From positions 96,001 through 160,000 of IMG/VR virus record IMGVR_UViG_3300028048_000040: a DNA stretch of 64,000 nucleotides, one strand, 5' to 3'. The notes under the pieces were generated by a model. The model was not told the origin of the DNA. It did no database searches and saw nothing but the letters and a program-made list of their open reading frames with translations. A program made the position numbers and the translations under genes. The stretch is from a virus. Its lineage: Duplodnaviria > Caudoviricetes. This document shows, piece by piece, positions 3,117 through 58,770 of the stretch. Position 1 is the first letter of the stretch; every line of letters begins with the position of its first letter.

Positions 3117-5051
3117 ATGGATGCTAAAGAAGATTTATTTGGTTGGTTTGATGTGAAAAGTTATGATGGCTCTTCTGATTTGAATGCTAGTTTAAATGTA
3201 GCTGCTGTTTCTGGCAAAGATATTTCTGGTACTTTAAAAGTAGCAATATATCACACAAAAACTGATCTTAATGGTAGTATTAATATTAATACCACCACTC
3301 CAGAACCTGCAGAATTAGAAGGTTCTATGGAAGTAAGTGAACGAGCTTATCTACCAGGAACTATCAATATCATAGGAAATATTAGAGAAGAATTATTAAC
3401 TAAAGTAATAGTTCCTTTGCCAAATGAAGATCTAAATGGTACTGTAACTATAAGGTGCAATACTACAAAAGATATCAATATCACAATGACAGTTCCTCAT
3501 CTAGAAATGGATATACCAGGATCTATAGTCATTGAGAGAGACGATACATATGATATTCCTATCAATGTAAGAGTACCAGAGAACGTCAAACCAGCTGCAT
3601 ATGAACCAATAGTAGGTAGTCTTATTATAAAGATACCATTCCCATACACTCAGTTTACTGATACAGAATTCTTCTTAACAGAATCTAAAACTAATCTATT
3701 TATTCCTCAGAGATATTATGAGAGATATGATGAGTATCATTTGCTCCTTTCTGATGAATTAGGATTGCAAGAAGATGATGAAATAAGATTCACTTTCTGT
3801 CACAATGATGCTAAGTTCCATATACAAAAGATGGAATTTTATTTTAAAGCAAATGGTAATGCTTCTTATTACTATCTAGATCTAATTATTCCATACAAGA
3901 AGAGAATAGAAAACACTAATTTAGCGTTAAAAGTCTTTGTCAATAGAAGAGAAATAGTTCTAAACAAAGATTATATGATAGATAACGAAACTGGTATATT
4001 AGAATTCATTAATGATGATCTAGCTCAATCACCAAATGATAGAATAGATATCTTATGTTTCTATACTGGTATAGATGATACTGCTGTAGCAGATCTTCCT
4101 ATGAGTGGTTATATCTATTTAAAGAGAAATATGATAGATAGAAATTACAATAATAATCTAATGGCCACATTTATAAATGGTAAACTGATTCCTAGAGATA
4201 AGATACTTCATATCTCTAATAATATCTATAAGATCAAAGAAGATATCAAAACAAGACATGACCTGCAGATCCTTAATATGAGTAATCGTATAGATTGTAT
4301 GGTTCCATTCTATAAACAAGCCACTCAATATCCTCCACTTGATAAGTATTCTTTCTATCCTCCAAGTGTAAATATATATGATGAAGATATCAAATATATG
4401 GAAGCTGTTATGCCTATAACTATTACAGTTCCCGAATTAGAAACATTTGGAAGACAGAAGATAACTATATATCAAAATCCAGTATATTTCTCTCCAGAAT
4501 TCTTATTAGAGAATAAGGATAAATATATTTCGTTCATTCATCATGCTTCTTCTGAAGATATTCAATATGAACTATTATTCTATGAGAATGATACTATAAC
4601 ATATCCTACAAACAAAATGAAAGTTACACTAGAACTTCATATTAAGACACCATTTGAAGAGACTAAAGAAGAATCAAGATCCACTATCCTATTACTAACT
4701 TTCCCATATAGAATTACTGCTATATATGAAGATTATTGCTATGCTTGTCTGCAAATCAAACAGATTATCAATCTAGATATATGGAATAATAATTTCCTAG
4801 AATCTTGTGATGGAATCACTCTAAGAATAGAACCAAATAGAACTTATCAAGATCAACCTTCTGAAGTATATTTCCATATGTGGTGTAATAAATTTGAAAA
4901 TTTCGAGAATGAACAAATAACCGTATTTGAGTATAGAATAACTGACAAATATGATGGTCTTGGCAATATTTCTTATAGTAAATTCTTATCCTTCAATCCA
5001 GAAGAAACTGTAAAGGATGCTATAAGAGCAGAAGAAAATAACAAAGTATAA
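3117..5051 (+). CDS. Virion structural protein, same module family as the upstream gene
   Basis: 644 aa; 'KVFVNRREI..DY', 'TFINGKLI' modules; N-terminal D-L/I-x-G-x-L/I-x-V beta repeats. Confidence 0.55.
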   Translation: MDAKEDLFGWFDVKSYDGSSDLNASLNVAAVSGKDISGTLKVAIYHTKTDLNGSININTTTPEPAELEGSMEVSERAYLPGTINIIGNIREELLTKVIVPLPNEDLNGTVTIRCNTTKDINITMTVPHLEMDIPGSIVIERDDTYDIPINVRVPENVKPAAYEPIVGSLIIKIPFPYTQFTDTEFFLTESKTNLFIPQRYYERYDEYHLLLSDELGLQEDDEIRFTFCHNDAKFHIQKMEFYFKANGNASYYYLDLIIPYKKRIENTNLALKVFVNRREIVLNKDYMIDNETGILEFINDDLAQSPNDRIDILCFYTGIDDTAVADLPMSGYIYLKRNMIDRNYNNNLMATFINGKLIPRDKILHISNNIYKIKEDIKTRHDLQILNMSNRIDCMVPFYKQATQYPPLDKYSFYPPSVNIYDEDIKYMEAVMPITITVPELETFGRQKITIYQNPVYFSPEFLLENKDKYISFIHHASSEDIQYELLFYENDTITYPTNKMKVTLELHIKTPFEETKEESRSTILLLTFPYRITAIYEDYCYACLQIKQIINLDIWNNNFLESCDGITLRIEPNRTYQDQPSEVYFHMWCNKFENFENEQITVFEYRITDKYDGLGNISYSKFLSFNPEETVKDAIRAEENNKV

Positions 5052-34231: not shown

Positions 34232-34336
34232 TTAATTTCTTGAAACACGATCTAGTACTTTTCCAAGCAAGTATGATATTCCTATAACCATACACCAGAA
34301 AAGAAATTCACCAATCATCGGATTCGTCGTAGTCAT
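34232..34336 (-). CDS. Single-TM microprotein (~34 aa, start uncertain)
   Basis: MTTTNPMIGEFLFWCMVIGISYLLGKVLDRVSRN, stop abuts terminator. Confidence 0.5.
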   Translation of the reverse strand: MTTTNPMIGEFLFWCMVIGISYLLGKVLDRVSRN

Positions 34337-34430
34337 TGCCATCATCATCACTTTCTCCATAACCAGTAAATAATATAATTGCTATTCCAACCAGCATTAA
34401 AAATCCACCAAATGCAATCATCTCATACAT
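34308..34430 (-). CDS. Single-TM microprotein with acidic tail (40 aa)
   Basis: SD GAGGGA; MYEMIAFGGFLMLVGIAIILFTGYGESDDDGNDYDESDDW. Confidence 0.65.
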   Translation of the reverse strand: MYEMIAFGGFLMLVGIAIILFTGYGESDDDGNDYDESDDW

Positions 34431-34440
34431 ATAAATCCCT

Positions 34441-34572
34441 CTAATCTGTTAAAGATTCTAATATAGCTCCTAAGATCTCAAAGATAGCTTCAAAGAACCC
34501 TATCTTTATTAATAACCAAATCCCCCCTAAACATCCCATTCCGATTAGTCCATATAACCAATATACACTCAT
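34441..34572 (-). CDS. Hydrophobic microprotein (43 aa)
   Basis: SD GAGGTG right after early motif 34583-34598; MSVYWLYGLIGMGCLGGIWLLIKIGFFEAIFEILGAILESLTD. Confidence 0.65.
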   Translation of the reverse strand: MSVYWLYGLIGMGCLGGIWLLIKIGFFEAIFEILGAILESLTD

Positions 34573-34607
34573 ATCCATCACCTCATAGATATAATATATG
34601 GATAAAA

Positions 34608-37408: not shown

Positions 37409-37445
37409 GTAATTATTAAAAATTTTAAGCATATATTATATCAGT

Positions 37446-37638: not shown

Positions 37639-37699
37639 ATTTTATTCTTCAAAAGACAATAGAATAGCATTTATTCTATTTATAAGGAGAGGATTCAAT

Positions 37700-39031
37700 A
37701 TGAACATTCTAAACAAAATCAAAGATTTTTTTTCTGGTAAACAGAAAGAAGAAGAATTATTCAGTAAAGCAGAACAAGTAGATCGATCATCTGTTCATGT
37801 ACTAAGTGTTTCTCCTAATGTATATTTAGCATGTAGAGCTGCTAAATTATGCATTGGTAAAAAAGTAAATGGTACTATTACAGATAGAATGAAGTATATA
37901 GAGAAAATAGTAGGTATGGGTCATGAGAGTATTCTAGAACATACCAATGTGGTTGCTATGATTATCTATTATAATCCTATCTCTAAACCAGAACAATTTT
38001 CTGAAATCGTTGCTAATGGTAAGTATTTAGATATTATTCCTAAGCAAGATGGAGAAAAAACTGTTGTTCTTATTGGTGGTTCTATTAGAGCTTATATGCA
38101 TCTAGTAAGAGAAACAGATCAGAATAATGTATATCTAGAAGACATCAAAAAAGTGATGTATCAGTCTATTGAGAAATGTTTCTTGAAATCTCTTATTGAA
38201 AAAGGATTACTTGATGAAGCTGAATGTAACTTCATGACATATGCTACAGTAGATAAACATGTAGAAGATGATCAAGAACCATTACCAGAAATTATAGAAG
38301 ATCCTAAAGAAAAAGAAAGCAAAACTTCTGATCTTATCTATATTACTGATTTTGATAAACTTTATAGCGATGTGGTATTACTTTCTGATAGATATACTAA
38401 GAGAGAAATAGTAAGAATGTGTCACTTTACATTCTTATTCCATGATATTTCTCGTTCTTGTGGTAATCAGTTATGCAGACACCGTAATGGTATTACACAA
38501 GAATCTCAAAGATATGTAACTCATGAATATACTAAAGAGAAAGACTTTATTGATCCTATCAGAATGCAGTTAGATGATAGATATAACAATCTGGCTCCTA
38601 ATCTTATAGAGAAATTTAATAAAGTAGACTTTAAGACTTATAAAGATATGATCTCTGCTGGTATATTTAAAGAAGATGCTAGAGCATGGTTACCAATGAA
38701 TGTTACTACTAAGATTATGATGACATTCAATGGATTTACTTTAGCTAAATTCTTACATCTTAGAACAGCTAAAGGAGCTCAATTAGAGATTAGAAATATG
38801 GCTAATGAAATGGTTCATCAGTTATTTACTAATACAGAAGCATATGTAGACTTTATAAATACAGTATTAAAATTTGGGTATGAAGATGTAAAACCAGCAT
38901 ATACTTCTGATACTATAGATGAAGAAATTGATATTAAAACTGAATCATTTGAAGATTCTAAAATAGACTCTGATGAAGCAAAAAGACTTCTTGAAGTAGA
39001 AGAAGAATATAAGAATTTAGAGAAGAATTAA
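37700..39031 (+). CDS. thyX: Flavin-dependent thymidylate synthase ThyX-like, with large insertion
   Basis: 'GHESILEH', 'ISRSCGNQLCRHRNGITQESQRY', 'KEDARAWLP', 'LRTAKGAQLEIR'; own ACA-N6-TA at 37656-37666. Confidence 0.85.
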   Translation: MNILNKIKDFFSGKQKEEELFSKAEQVDRSSVHVLSVSPNVYLACRAAKLCIGKKVNGTITDRMKYIEKIVGMGHESILEHTNVVAMIIYYNPISKPEQFSEIVANGKYLDIIPKQDGEKTVVLIGGSIRAYMHLVRETDQNNVYLEDIKKVMYQSIEKCFLKSLIEKGLLDEAECNFMTYATVDKHVEDDQEPLPEIIEDPKEKESKTSDLIYITDFDKLYSDVVLLSDRYTKREIVRMCHFTFLFHDISRSCGNQLCRHRNGITQESQRYVTHEYTKEKDFIDPIRMQLDDRYNNLAPNLIEKFNKVDFKTYKDMISAGIFKEDARAWLPMNVTTKIMMTFNGFTLAKFLHLRTAKGAQLEIRNMANEMVHQLFTNTEAYVDFINTVLKFGYEDVKPAYTSDTIDEEIDIKTESFEDSKIDSDEAKRLLEVEEEYKNLEKN

Positions 39032-39082
39032 CAAATGATTAGTTCTGTTAACTCTATTATATATGAAAAAGGAGATTTCAAA

Positions 39083-40150
39083 ATGGAAAACAACGAAATC
39101 AAAAACGAACAAGTCAATGAAAGAAAACCTTACTATCGTAAAAACAACTATCGCCGTCATCAGTGGAGAGAAAAACCTCAGGCTATTTCTTATATTAAAT
39201 CCTTTGATAACTTTAATGATGGTTTTACCGAAGTGATTCGGTTTAATCCTGAATTGAAGAACTATTGTGGTGATTTTGGTTCTTATGATGCTGTAATTGC
39301 TTCTATGACCAAAGCGATTAATGATAATATTCCGTCTCCAAATAATATTAACTATCCTAACACTCTTTCTCTTAGTATTGATGCTAATGAAGTAGGATTT
39401 AAAACGGATACTAATATTGCTCTTGGTTGGAGAATTAGATACTCTTATAAAGAAGCTAAGACTTATTATAATTTCCGTGTAACCTTCATCTCTATTCCTG
39501 TATATAAGAATAATACTATTGCAGATATGGTAGAAGCAGGTTGGAAGAAACTTGTAAAGTCTAATCGACAGAATCGTTATTGGAATCATCTCGAAGGAAA
39601 AGATCGTGAAGAATCCAATGAAGGATTTAAAGTAAAAGAACTCATTGGAGAACAGAAGATTTCTACTAATCATTCTATGAGTATGCCTAAAGCATATAAT
39701 GAAGATGAATATGATGATGTAGAAGATTCTGTAGCTGATTTAAAAGAGATTCATACTGCTGATAATACAGTAGATGATGAAGATATTCTCAATCCAGGAG
39801 ATGAAGTTGCTATTATTAGTGATGAATCTGTAGCTGCTGAACTTGGAGTAGATAAAATCATCTTGAATGGTGAAGATATCAGTAAAGAAGAAGCAGCTGA
39901 AAAGATGGAAGAAGTTCTTGATAAAGTAGAAGAGCAAGCAACTTCTGGATATGTAGAATCTAATGATAGTATCTCTGCAACTGCTAACCCTAGTGTATTT
40001 ATCATCAATCACAAAGGTGAACCTCGTGTAATCAATATTGATGCAGATGATATTGCTTATGGTGATATGCTCGTTAATAAAGAAACTGGTTTGATTAGCT
40101 TTGCTGATGGAACTATTTTTGATTATAAGAACTTAAATATAATGCATTGA
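39083..40150 (+). CDS. Hypothetical protein, basic N-terminus and acidic C-terminal half
   Basis: Start MENNEI after SD AAAGGAG; cotranscribed with thyX. Confidence 0.75.
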   Translation: MENNEIKNEQVNERKPYYRKNNYRRHQWREKPQAISYIKSFDNFNDGFTEVIRFNPELKNYCGDFGSYDAVIASMTKAINDNIPSPNNINYPNTLSLSIDANEVGFKTDTNIALGWRIRYSYKEAKTYYNFRVTFISIPVYKNNTIADMVEAGWKKLVKSNRQNRYWNHLEGKDREESNEGFKVKELIGEQKISTNHSMSMPKAYNEDEYDDVEDSVADLKEIHTADNTVDDEDILNPGDEVAIISDESVAAELGVDKIILNGEDISKEEAAEKMEEVLDKVEEQATSGYVESNDSISATANPSVFIINHKGEPRVINIDADDIAYGDMLVNKETGLISFADGTIFDYKNLNIMH

Positions 40151-56182: not shown

Positions 56183-56208
56183 TACCAAGGGAGAATTCTC
56201 CCTTGGTA
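56183..56208 (+). terminator. Perfect palindrome terminator
   Basis: TACCAAGGGAGAA/TTCTCCCTTGGTA plus T-tract. Confidence 0.75.
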
Positions 56209-56238
56209 AACTTTTTTTCAGTTATATATTATTATTAT

Positions 56239-56323
56239 GAGAGTATGATGAGAGCCAAACATTATACTCTTAAAAACTTCCTAAGAAGATAGATAGTTAA
56301 TGTGCTGACTATCTATCTTTTTT
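56239..56323 (+). ncRNA. Candidate ~85-nt small RNA
   Basis: Early motif 56225-56240; hairpin GAGAGTATGATG...CATTATACTCTT; terminator AAGATAGATAGTTA...TGACTATCTATCTTTTTT. Confidence 0.6.
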
Positions 56324-56388
56324 ATAAAGTAAAATAAAAAATAGATATATACTATTCCTATGAGTATGAGTTGAAGGAGGAATAAGTT

Positions 56389-56586: not shown

Positions 56587-56662
56587 TCAAACAAAAATAA
56601 TACCTGGAATTCCAGGTATTATTTTTTAACTTATTTTTTACTATTAGATAATCAAGAAAGAG

Positions 56663-57391
56663 GTGATACTTATCAAATCTAGAAAACAAAAGAAAACTCT
56701 CTATGACTCTAAATACTCTCATATTCCTAGAGATTATAATGAGAGATTATCATGGATGTATGACACACTTCATATTACACCAGATAAAGAAAATTATATT
56801 TTACAAGCAAGAGATCAATATATTCAAAACATGGCATTTAGTCCAGAAATATTAGTAGTATTATATGAAGAACCAGAAGGTTCTCCTAGACCAAGAGCTA
56901 GATTTGTCAATAAAGGAAATCTATCTGCTAGTGCTAAAGCAAATCCAGGATTCATACAAGTATATTCTATTACTGGTGCTGCAGATAGAAAGTTTATGAA
57001 ACAATTTATATCAGATAATGATTTTCTACAATTAGATCAATTGATATATACTCCATGTAATATAGAATTCGATGCATTCTTTAAAACACCAAATTCATTT
57101 AATAACACAGATACATTTTTAGCAGAACTTGGATGTATACGACCGATATCAAAACCAGATTTTGATAATATTGAAAAGAAATATGCTGATATGTATAATG
57201 GAAATGTTTGGATAGATGATGCTCTAGTAGTAGATGCAGTAGTTAGGAAATACTATTCTATTCTTCCTAGAGTTGAGATTCATCTTAGATTTCTAAACAT
57301 GCTTTATAACAAATACCAATATAAATCTATATCTAATAGAGTAGAGAGCACTAACGTAAATTATTTCAATACTATATATAAAAAGGAATGA
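56663..57391 (+). CDS. rusA: RusA-family Holliday junction resolvase
   Basis: 'PEGSPRPR', 'KPDFDNIEKKYADMYNGNVWIDDALV', 'KYYSILPRVEI'. Confidence 0.85.
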   Translation: MILIKSRKQKKTLYDSKYSHIPRDYNERLSWMYDTLHITPDKENYILQARDQYIQNMAFSPEILVVLYEEPEGSPRPRARFVNKGNLSASAKANPGFIQVYSITGAADRKFMKQFISDNDFLQLDQLIYTPCNIEFDAFFKTPNSFNNTDTFLAELGCIRPISKPDFDNIEKKYADMYNGNVWIDDALVVDAVVRKYYSILPRVEIHLRFLNMLYNKYQYKSISNRVESTNVNYFNTIYKKE

Positions 57392-57765
57392 TTTACATGT
57401 TAAAAATTTATCCATCTGGTTTAGATCTAAATATGAAGAACAATATCCTAACAGCTCAGTATATGAAACAAAAACTAACACGAATGGGATATCTAACAAC
57501 ACAATCTATTTATAATACTATAAAGGAGTTCTTTCCTCAGTTTAATGAGAATGCTATAGGATATATGAATACAGAAATAACAATATCATTATCAGGAGAA
57601 ACTATATATCAGATAAGGAGTATCTTAGTAGAGTTATTTAATAGATTGAGTAGTAAACTAAGTGGATTAGTTAGTTTAGATGAACAGAATATATTGATCA
57701 GTAGACCTGAATTATTTTATACTATTCAAACAGTAGCTCCAAACATATATATAATCAGAATATAA
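57388..57765 (+). CDS. Hypothetical protein
   Basis: 125 aa, overlaps rusA stop. Confidence 0.7.
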   Translation: MIYMLKIYPSGLDLNMKNNILTAQYMKQKLTRMGYLTTQSIYNTIKEFFPQFNENAIGYMNTEITISLSGETIYQIRSILVELFNRLSSKLSGLVSLDEQNILISRPELFYTIQTVAPNIYIIRI

Positions 57766-57882
57766 GATAAGGAATGGCGAGACTTATCTTAGTTTTGTTT
57801 TGACATAATGAATCCTCCTAAAATACTCCTTTCATGATGTTTGTTCGTTGTTTCTCCTTTTTCATAAAACTTCCCTAATACA

Positions 57883-57908
57883 CTCCCTAGGTAGAAATAC
57901 CTAGGGAG
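57883..57908 (+). terminator. GAAA-loop hairpin closing a long 3' UTR
   Basis: CTCCCTAGGTA-GAAA-TACCTAGGGAG. Confidence 0.7.
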
Positions 57909-58044
57909 ATGAATATTGCATTTTGGGAAAATTACTGTGATGAAAAGTGTTTAATTGCATCAAAAATAGGTATAAGTTCATTATTTCAAGCATATATTAT
58001 ATCAGTGATAAAAGCCATATAATTAAAGGAAGGAGGTAAAAATT

Positions 58045-58770
58045 ATGGCTAAGAAAAAAGCTGAACCTCAGGTTCAGAAGCTGGAACCAAATCCAGCATT
58101 AGATATTCTGGCTCTTAACTTGTTTGAAAAAACAAATGGGTCAGAAACAATGACTCCTGAACAACTTAAGGAGGCAATTAATAGAGTTGAAACTATAGTC
58201 AAACTCTATGCTAGAAGAATGTCTGAATGCACAGATGTTCAACGGTTACTTATCACAAAATGGTTTTCTGATACGACGATTAAAGAAGAAGATCGTATCA
58301 GAGTACTGGGGGTTGACCAGTACAATGAATGGTTAGCAGTTACCAAAAAAGCTGCAGAAGAATTGGCGGTAACAAAGTCGCCAGCTTCGGAAAATAACTC
58401 TGAAGCAGCAGCGACAATAGAAATGAATGGTACTGGTACCATGAAAGTGGATACCAAAGAGAAGGAGGAAACTAAAATGGCTATGTCTAAAGAAGAAATT
58501 CAGGAACTCGCAGCAGCAATGGCAGCAATGCAGCAGGGAGGCAAGGAAGAGAAGAAAGAAGACTCCAAAAAGGAGCAGGGATTCTTTGATGAGATGTGCG
58601 GCACGGTAAAAGAGGCAACCGATACCACTGTAGGTAAGGTAGCCCTTATCGCAGGCGGCGCAGCAGCAGGCATTTATCTGAAGAAGAAATTCTTCGACGA
58701 GCCAGCTGATTCCGACTGGGCGTCTGGTGAAACCCAGATCGCGTCCCAGGGAGCATCTATGTTCTTCTAA
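58045..58770 (+). CDS. Early protein with in-frame internal start at 58477 and C-terminal TM-like segment
   Basis: Early motif 57993-58008; SD AAGGAGGT; second SD AAGGAGG before ATG 58477; terminator 58786-58810. Confidence 0.75.
   Translation: MAKKKAEPQVQKLEPNPALDILALNLFEKTNGSETMTPEQLKEAINRVETIVKLYARRMSECTDVQRLLITKWFSDTTIKEEDRIRVLGVDQYNEWLAVTKKAAEELAVTKSPASENNSEAAATIEMNGTGTMKVDTKEKEETKMAMSKEEIQELAAAMAAMQQGGKEEKKEDSKKEQGFFDEMCGTVKEATDTTVGKVALIAGGAAAGIYLKKKFFDEPADSDWASGETQIASQGASMFF

Follow-up and report, generated by a model that had tools for sequence, protein, structure and literature searches.

The pyrimidine-rich stretch that we describe here most likely forms the unpaired body of a conserved, ORF-less transcription unit on the plus strand of an AR9-like phage genome. 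Its promoter motif, covarying hairpins and conservation in relatives suggest that this unit is probably a late noncoding RNA. Our best explanation overall, in which such a late plus strand RNA pairs with Shine-Dalgarno (SD) and start regions in a generic manner, has about an even chance of being correct, and the proposal that the RNA would work by masking SD sequences is put forward tentatively. The start, 3' end and strand of the unit are predictions from sequence.

Genomic setting

The window, meaning the whole stretch of 64,000 nt that was analysed, corresponds to bases 96001-160000 of a 342,328-bp virus record; the G+C content is 31.5%. The stretch under study lies in a 279-nt gap whose flanking genes are all on the plus strand, and a blastn search with 57300-58300 against public phage records gave no match. 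The features of the locus are as follows.

56663-57391, plus strand: RusA-like resolvase gene, preceding the 122-aa gene
57388-57765, plus strand: 122/125-aa gene directly upstream of the gap; stop codon TAA at 57763-57765
57742-57753, plus strand: putative AR9-type late promoter AACA-N6-TA, AACATATATATA, within the last codons of the 122-aa gene; predicted start A57753
~57753 to ~57915, plus strand: whole predicted unit, ~165 nt, ORF-less
57756-57802, plus strand: predicted 5' stem-loop with a variable loop; outer helix 57756-57759/57799-57802, inner helix 57763-57771/57783-57791
57804-57819, plus strand: block 1, anti-SD motif CAU-N7-CCUCCU; CCTCCT invariant in five clades
57803-57842, plus strand: predicted middle hairpin, clade-limited, with CCUCC and CUCC in an 18-nt loop
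57844-57869, plus strand: 26-nt core with UUUCUCCUUUUU and CAU, predicted single-stranded (unpaired probability 0.73-0.96)
57870-57876, plus strand: block 4, CUUCCCU, C-rich; sequence varies but is always YUCC-rich
57883-57908, plus strand: 3' hairpin with an 11-bp stem and a GAAA tetraloop; likely 3' end/terminator
58045-58770, plus strand: downstream gene, 241 aa, with its own early promoter at 57992
39062-39097, plus strand: start region of gene 39083, the claimed target, outside the unit

The elements named in the preliminary description of this DNA are present, namely the stop codon at 57765, the GAAA hairpin at 57883-57908 and four pyrimidine blocks (TCCTCCT at 57813, ACTCCTTT at 57825, TCTCCTTT at 57853 and CTTCCCT at 57870).

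The transcription signals of the genome resemble those of phage AR9. The early motif, ATATAYYAT-N5-TG, occurs in 77 copies genome-wide, 70 of which are intergenic in a genome with an intergenic fraction of 9%, and it is positioned 30-60 nt before gene starts with a conserved upstream element. This motif agrees with the early promoter consensus of AR9, AAATATATATTAT-N6-G (PMC5312081). There are two genes similar to the RNA polymerase beta subunit (two RNA_pol_Rpb2_6 matches above the cut-off). Judged by these transcription signals, the phage is an uncultured AR9-like giant (jumbo) phage, a metagenomic relative of AR9 that encodes thyX.

A late promoter in the last codons of the upstream gene

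In AR9, late promoters read AACA-N6-TA/G, with the last base as the start site (PMC5312081). The corresponding motif at 57742-57753 predicts transcription from A57753, inside the 122-aa gene. The core late motif carries little information, with 268 copies genome-wide. The extended form AACA-N6-TAATC occurs six times in 342 kb. Only the copy at 57742 sits in coding sequence; the five others are intergenic and point towards a gene downstream of them. Three of these five were checked and precede genes for the tail sheath, a virion structural protein and the major head protein; these copies, of the form AACA-N6-TAATC(A/G)GA, are found at window positions -93174, -89970 and 212537, respectively. 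The late motif is positioned at -24 from the stop codon in 13 of 13 relatives and is also present in the two most distant loci described below, L049 and L051. The final 27 nt of the 122-aa coding sequence are 93% invariant, with no synonymous change, whereas the codons just upstream vary freely. The AACA-N6-TA motif, the two RNA polymerase beta-like genes and the AR9-type early promoter are the marks of an AR9-type late unit, and all three were found; the likeness to AR9 late units extends to the AACA-N6-TA/G motif, the placement of late promoters inside early operons and the early consensus (PMC5312081).

The region had been described earlier as the 3' untranslated region (UTR) of the rusA operon. 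It may indeed share its 3' end with the early operon transcript, but it has a late promoter of its own, and since this promoter is of the major-capsid class and lies in the last codons of the upstream gene, the region is better described as a late unit in its own right. A sigma-70 candidate, TTGACA-16-AATACT at 57800, is not conserved beyond two clades, and the number of sigma-70 promoter-like sites equals the shuffle expectation; the candidate was dropped because AR9-type phages are independent of the host RNA polymerase. Elsewhere in the record, at about window position -30550 on the minus strand, a tRNA-like sequence comes immediately after an AACA-N6-TA motif; among the AR9 genes that are expressed late there is also one for a tRNA (PMC5312081).

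Structure of the predicted RNA

The predicted RNA is framed by two hairpins, the 5' stem-loop and the GAAA hairpin, both of which are recovered by RNAalifold from ten sequences. In each of three unrelated versions of the sequence the 5' stem begins 2-4 nt downstream of the predicted start, and two of its pairs show double changes (RNAalifold and pair counts, alignment A3). In the 3' hairpin, double-sided compensatory changes are found in 5 of the 11 pairs and 100% of the cells are paired. Taken together, the two hairpins contain seven double-sided pairs with 98.3% of cells paired, which 0 of 500 shuffles reach, and slid registers are far worse. The covariation in relatives that had been suggested as a check is seen in both hairpins. 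Nine G.U cells pair on the plus strand only, as they would be A.C mismatches on the minus strand.

The stem of the 3' hairpin is strong and covarying and is followed by no canonical U-tract, and the hairpin was not called by the terminator scan; there is a weak U-rich tail at 57909-57920, the U-rich run beginning 5-10 nt past the stem. Long hairpins with GAAA loops recur genome-wide directly after stop codons, and in 9 of the 11 informative cases the sense strand of the flanking genes is the one that gives the GAAA loop. A hairpin of this class, with the same form as the 3' hairpin here, follows the major head gene, and it is among several members of the class that have no adjacent U-tract. 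The 5' hairpin was also considered as a terminator of the rusA operon, and this was rejected because its U-run pairs with CAGA in the outer helix, with G.U and G-C variation.

The region between the two hairpins is largely exposed. Block 1 has an unpaired probability of 0.87-0.96; in distant relatives its CAU is lost in L051 and CCUCC is absent from L049. The middle hairpin is predicted for clades A/B (-5.4 kcal/mol) and, with a compensatory change from A-U to G-C, for L010 (-6.3 kcal/mol); it is absent from the L018 and L019 clades. Block 2 (57825-57832), which lies within this hairpin, is unconserved and absent outside clades A/B. Block 4 has an unpaired probability of 0.84-0.98 and reads CUCCCU, CUUCCCCCU, UUUUCCUC or CUUCCUC in other clades. 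A scan of 57300-58300 against Rfam 15 (E up to 5) returned only a chance match to RAGATH-34 inside the next gene.

Conservation and the alternative of a cis-acting region

Relatives were gathered through the 122-aa protein and the core DNA pattern, and they comprise five clades with 76-99% protein identity. The 26-nt core at 57844-57869 is identical in all five clades. Across the same clades, 31% of the third codon positions and 62% of the first and second positions of the adjacent gene are invariant, and under the 31% third-position rate the invariance of the core has a P value of about 5e-14. Wider pattern searches in viral contigs recovered just one close relative. More distant homologues of the 122-aa protein, with 43% and 36% identity, came from an exhaustive protein search. 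At their loci (L049 and L051) almost nothing of the sequence is shared, yet the layout is retained in full: the last codons contain AACA-N6-TAAT, a stem starts at nt 2 of the predicted RNA, there is an unpaired stretch rich in C and U, UUUCUCCUUU precedes a GC-rich terminal hairpin by 4-5 nt, and an early promoter for the next unit comes after that hairpin. The properties looked for in a pairing seed are found here, as the core is invariant, UUUCUCCUUU is kept in distant relatives and the motifs are predicted to be accessible (unpaired probability 0.73-0.98).

Homology with the relatives ends directly after the 3' hairpin, at 57910. The slot beyond it (58045-58770 here; also seen in L003, L008, L010, L018 and L019) is a swapped cassette that holds unrelated genes in each clade. 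The same slot in L049, at ~3120-3300, contains another ORF-less unit with an early promoter and its own terminator.

The region could instead be a cis-acting UTR, with the late promoter serving the downstream gene or genes, or with the region being the shared 3' end of the rusA operon. The CU-rich tract would then be bound by a protein, such as ribosomal protein S1 or an RNA-binding protein of the phage, or would serve in stability or termination. In AR9, many genes have an early promoter as well as a late one, and late sub-operons lie within early operons (PMC5312081). The downstream gene in the window has an early promoter of its own at 57992, and there is no strict early motif before the next gene in L003 and L008. 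The absence of a U-tract beside the stem of the 3' hairpin is also in keeping with such a role. Generic pairing would not need as many as 26 invariant nucleotides; a dedicated structural or protein site fits them better, so that a cis-acting or protein-binding role stays plausible. However, most relatives have promoter-like AT-rich motifs after the hairpin. The element stays linked to the upstream gene, whereas different clades carry different downstream genes and homology breaks off directly beyond the hairpin, which belongs to the class that ends the major head gene. On balance we consider a cis-acting region rather unlikely.

Exposed anti-SD motifs

The late noncoding RNA that we favor would carry an array of anti-SD motifs exceeding chance expectation, an excess that is observed directly in the DNA. 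The array has 5 clusters per 100 nt, and at least 5 clusters occur in 48 of 342,229 plus strand scanning windows of 100 nt (0.014%). It is the only fully intergenic plus strand place with 5 clusters, which are carried by the strand that is sense for the neighbouring genes. A second anti-SD-rich plus strand segment, 34435-34535, is accounted for by the minus strand region 34240-34590, where an early promoter at 34584 (minus strand) is followed by small hydrophobic ORFs of <60 aa that were missed by the length cut-off. A crude genome scan found no other ORF-less units with a late promoter that are rich in anti-SD motifs.

The unit displays two to four motifs that resemble the 3' tail of 16S rRNA (CCUCCU, UUUCUCCUUU and CUUCC), and the anti-SD motifs of the linker include CCUCC and UCUCCUUU. 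In seven lineages, these motifs have an unpaired probability of 0.73-0.98 compared with a whole-RNA mean of ~0.5. When the mean pairing with all 351 start regions was calculated, the element was stronger than 40 of 40 block-preserving shuffles. The start regions of early and late genes pair equally well (P 0.13-0.93), indicating that a generic masker would also affect the phage's own late mRNAs. A more specific version of the proposal, in which an abundant late RNA, made from a promoter of the capsid class and conserved in a family of uncultured AR9-like jumbo phages, mimics the 3' tail of 16S rRNA and masks the SD sequences of host and earlier phage mRNAs, is possible but doubtful.

Coding potential and the minus strand

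Every argument from anti-SD sequence on the plus strand is mirrored by an SD plus ATG on the minus strand. The minus strand could be the functional one, giving a small transcript in which SD+ATG modules, with ATGs at 57865 and 57806, direct ribosomes to micro-ORFs or serve as a ribosome or CsrA-type decoy. The reverse complement of block 1 is a start region of median quality (12.7 bits against a median of 13.7), and only 61 orphan sites in 684 kb score like it. The SD-N7/8-ATG geometry is preserved in five clades despite a varying spacer, and ORF1 (MKKEKQR...) is open for 10-19 codons in all five. However, ORF1 keeps only those residues that are encoded by invariant nucleotides and has no synonymous variation, and ORF2 (MSKQN) ranges from 4 to 28 aa, with shifting frames even among close relatives. 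In L051 and L049, MKHTKKT and an ORF of 3 codons stand in place of these minus strand ORFs, and the ATG of block 1 is gone. Among 13 relatives, the minus strand has neither a strict early nor a strict late motif, the one relaxed early-like match being confined to two lineages. The flanking genes are all on the plus strand, and the nine G.U cells of the hairpins would be mismatched on the minus strand. Pairing with a conserved AUG of the plus strand middle hairpin can account for the conserved CAU. The two signs of a micro-ORF cassette, a conserved peptide with synonymous variation and a minus strand promoter, are both missing. We therefore regard a functional minus strand as improbable, and the micro-ORFs that the preliminary description had named as an alternative are neither conserved nor preceded by a promoter.

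The plus strand offers no better coding candidate. Its ORFs of 8-19 aa have no SD and change frame between clades, and the best start-region score downstream of the promoter is 1.1 bits. A micro-ORF found in three clades (M..FVVSPFS) was rejected, as it has no SD and in clades A/B is in another frame or has a TTG start.

Pairing with the thyX operon and other targets

The preliminary description had interpreted the region as a multi-target antisense RNA that represses distant phage genes; in this model its blocks would have evolved to repress thyX (37700) and gene 39083. The complements behind this model exist. The reverse complement of 57853-57866 equals 39062-39075 at 14/14 positions and that of 57844-57853 equals 39088-39097 at 10/10. 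A 13/14 match to 37689-37702 in thyX is also present, but at 57804-57817, since the segment that had been claimed, 57814-57827, gives only 5/14. In local comparisons, the reverse complement is most similar to thyX and 39083. When only the 26-nt core is used, 39083 ranks first among the 351 start regions at -27.1 kcal/mol, an energy reached by 1.3% of CTCC-preserving shuffles.

These matches are nevertheless ordinary when the whole linker is considered. Shuffled controls kept either the anti-SD blocks (94-nt linker) or CTCC (26-nt core) and were compared with the same 351 start regions. In RNAduplex calculations with the 94-nt linker, gene 39083 ranks 17th, and an equally low best energy is found in 75% of block-preserving shuffles, so that the best target is no stronger than in shuffled controls with SD complements. 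The local similarities of the reverse complement (17 to 39083 and 15 to thyX) are inside the range of real start-region pairs; of the real start regions, 18.5% have an equally similar partner at the 39083 level and 43% at the thyX level.

The targets also drift where the core is fixed. In G001, a 332-kb relative with an identical core, the second 39083 block reads AAACACTGAA and the complement is broken. In L025, a clade-B genome, the first 39083 block is reduced to AAAGGAGA (TATGAA lost), and the thyX start region differs as well. Target energies in relatives drop to -21.8, -18.9 and -15.8, the level of the shuffle mean, and block 2 is absent outside clades A/B. There is no shared top target in G000 and G001, the best partners in G001 being other genes. 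An ungapped whole-genome search for partners of the core in G000 and G001, with G.U allowed, returned only generic SD regions (<=37/59), and an extended complement of the core is absent from both genomes. No 22-nt match to the complement of the core was found in 185,579 species genomes, and no conserved pairing was seen in cis with the start regions of the 63-aa, rusA and 122-aa genes of the rusA operon. Among the phage start regions compared, no target with conserved or covarying complementarity was found. Of the antisense model, the plus strand noncoding RNA with accessible anti-SD motifs is retained, and its specificity for the thyX operon is not; we judge a dedicated repressor of thyX and gene 39083 very improbable.

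The segment 39026-39037, AACAAATGATTA, is a candidate late promoter that overlaps the thyX stop 44 nt before gene 39083 and is conserved in G001, L025 and L026. Gene 39083 may thus be late too, besides being served by the early thyX promoter at 37431.

That the region is a functionless relic of inverted gene starts or terminator arms is almost certainly wrong, for although its likeness to gene starts looks like homology and terminator stems elsewhere in the genome are built of SD-like and anti-SD-like arms, the core is invariant against 31% of synonymous sites, the hairpins covary and the layout is kept at 36-43% identity.

Other small elements near the locus

Three ORF-less mini units are found in the vicinity, at 56224-56325 (plus strand), 53864-53775 (minus strand) and 53981-53895 (minus strand). 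In all three, a strict early promoter, ATATATTAT-N5-TG, and a 5' hairpin are combined with a canonical T-run terminator, and the short linkers contain CUUCCU, CAUCUCCU or UCCCUUU. The region 56185-56334 cannot be aligned with the close relative L001, indicating that such mini units turn over quickly. Between a 65-aa gene and rusA, at 56593-56626, there is a perfect 15-bp palindromic hairpin, AAAAATAATACCTGG/CCAGGTATTATTTTT, with T-runs on both strands, which is terminator-like in both directions and has an inverted copy in L001.

Discussion

We propose that the non-virion RNA polymerase of the phage transcribes from the late promoter that sits within the final codons of the 122-aa gene. The RNA would begin at A57753 and at once form a protective 5' stem-loop, continue as an unstructured CU-rich stretch and end with the GAAA-capped hairpin. 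Earlier in infection, the same sequence may already form the 3' end of the early transcript from the rusA operon. The anti-SD motifs would pair in trans with SD and start regions of mRNAs, thereby lowering translation late in infection, and this pairing would be generic or aimed at other targets, possibly host mRNAs, rather than specifically at the thyX operon.

By analogy with the base-pairing small RNAs (sRNAs) of Firmicutes that carry C-rich or UCCC motifs, such as RsaE/RoxS and other Rsa RNAs (PMC2790875, PMC6158497), pairing with SD regions is the most likely mode of action (PMC2790875). The predicted RNA resembles RsaE/RoxS in being ORF-less and Hfq-independent-looking, in having unpaired C-rich, SD-complementary motifs, placed in loops or linkers, beside a terminal hairpin and in having the seed as its most conserved part. 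It differs in having no sequence or structure homology to them (Rfam), in being phage-encoded and in having a phage-specific late promoter. The motifs also differ, as those found here are CUCC or CCUCC with U-rich flanks, similar to the 16S tail, whereas those of RsaE/RoxS are CCCC or UCCC.

The arrangement of the unit is similar to that of type I 3'UTR-derived sRNAs (DapZ, MicL type), which have their own promoter in the upstream coding region and share a terminator with the mRNA. As in these sRNAs, the predicted promoter lies in the last codons of the upstream gene, and the RNA would correspond to the 3' UTR of that gene with a shared hairpin. Unlike them, the unit would involve two promoters, one for the early operon and one for the late RNA, that belong to different temporal classes and different phage RNA polymerases.

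In its proposed role, the RNA has a functional analogue in T4 RegB, which disables mRNAs through the GGAG Shine-Dalgarno sequence and shapes the temporal programme (PMC1702504, PMC3014915). Both would be phage devices that act on mRNAs via the SD. RegB, however, is an early-made protein nuclease that cuts GGAG, whereas here a late-made RNA would mask SDs by pairing, and, unlike in the RegB analogy, no preference for early mRNAs was found (P 0.13-0.93). Antisense oligomers against ribosome-binding sites silence jumbo-phage genes, as reported (PMC12571901), which suggests that masking of the SD by an RNA is feasible in such phages.

In the literature searched, we found no description of a regulatory RNA for AR9-like phages, and the terms "noncoding" and "small RNA" do not occur in the main text of the AR9 paper (PMC5312081). 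The early motif and the extended late motif together provide a usable promoter code for the present genome. Its small size, sharp boundaries and conservation from promoter to hairpin make the unit a clean candidate for experimental tests. To our knowledge, few phage-encoded small RNAs have an established function. AR9-like phages run their own two-polymerase programme, and a conserved late RNA with exposed anti-SD motifs would suggest that the timing of their gene expression is set at translation by RNA as well as by protein. If the mimicry of the 16S tail is true, such an RNA would help shift translation to the late programme and would be an RNA counterpart of T4 RegB.
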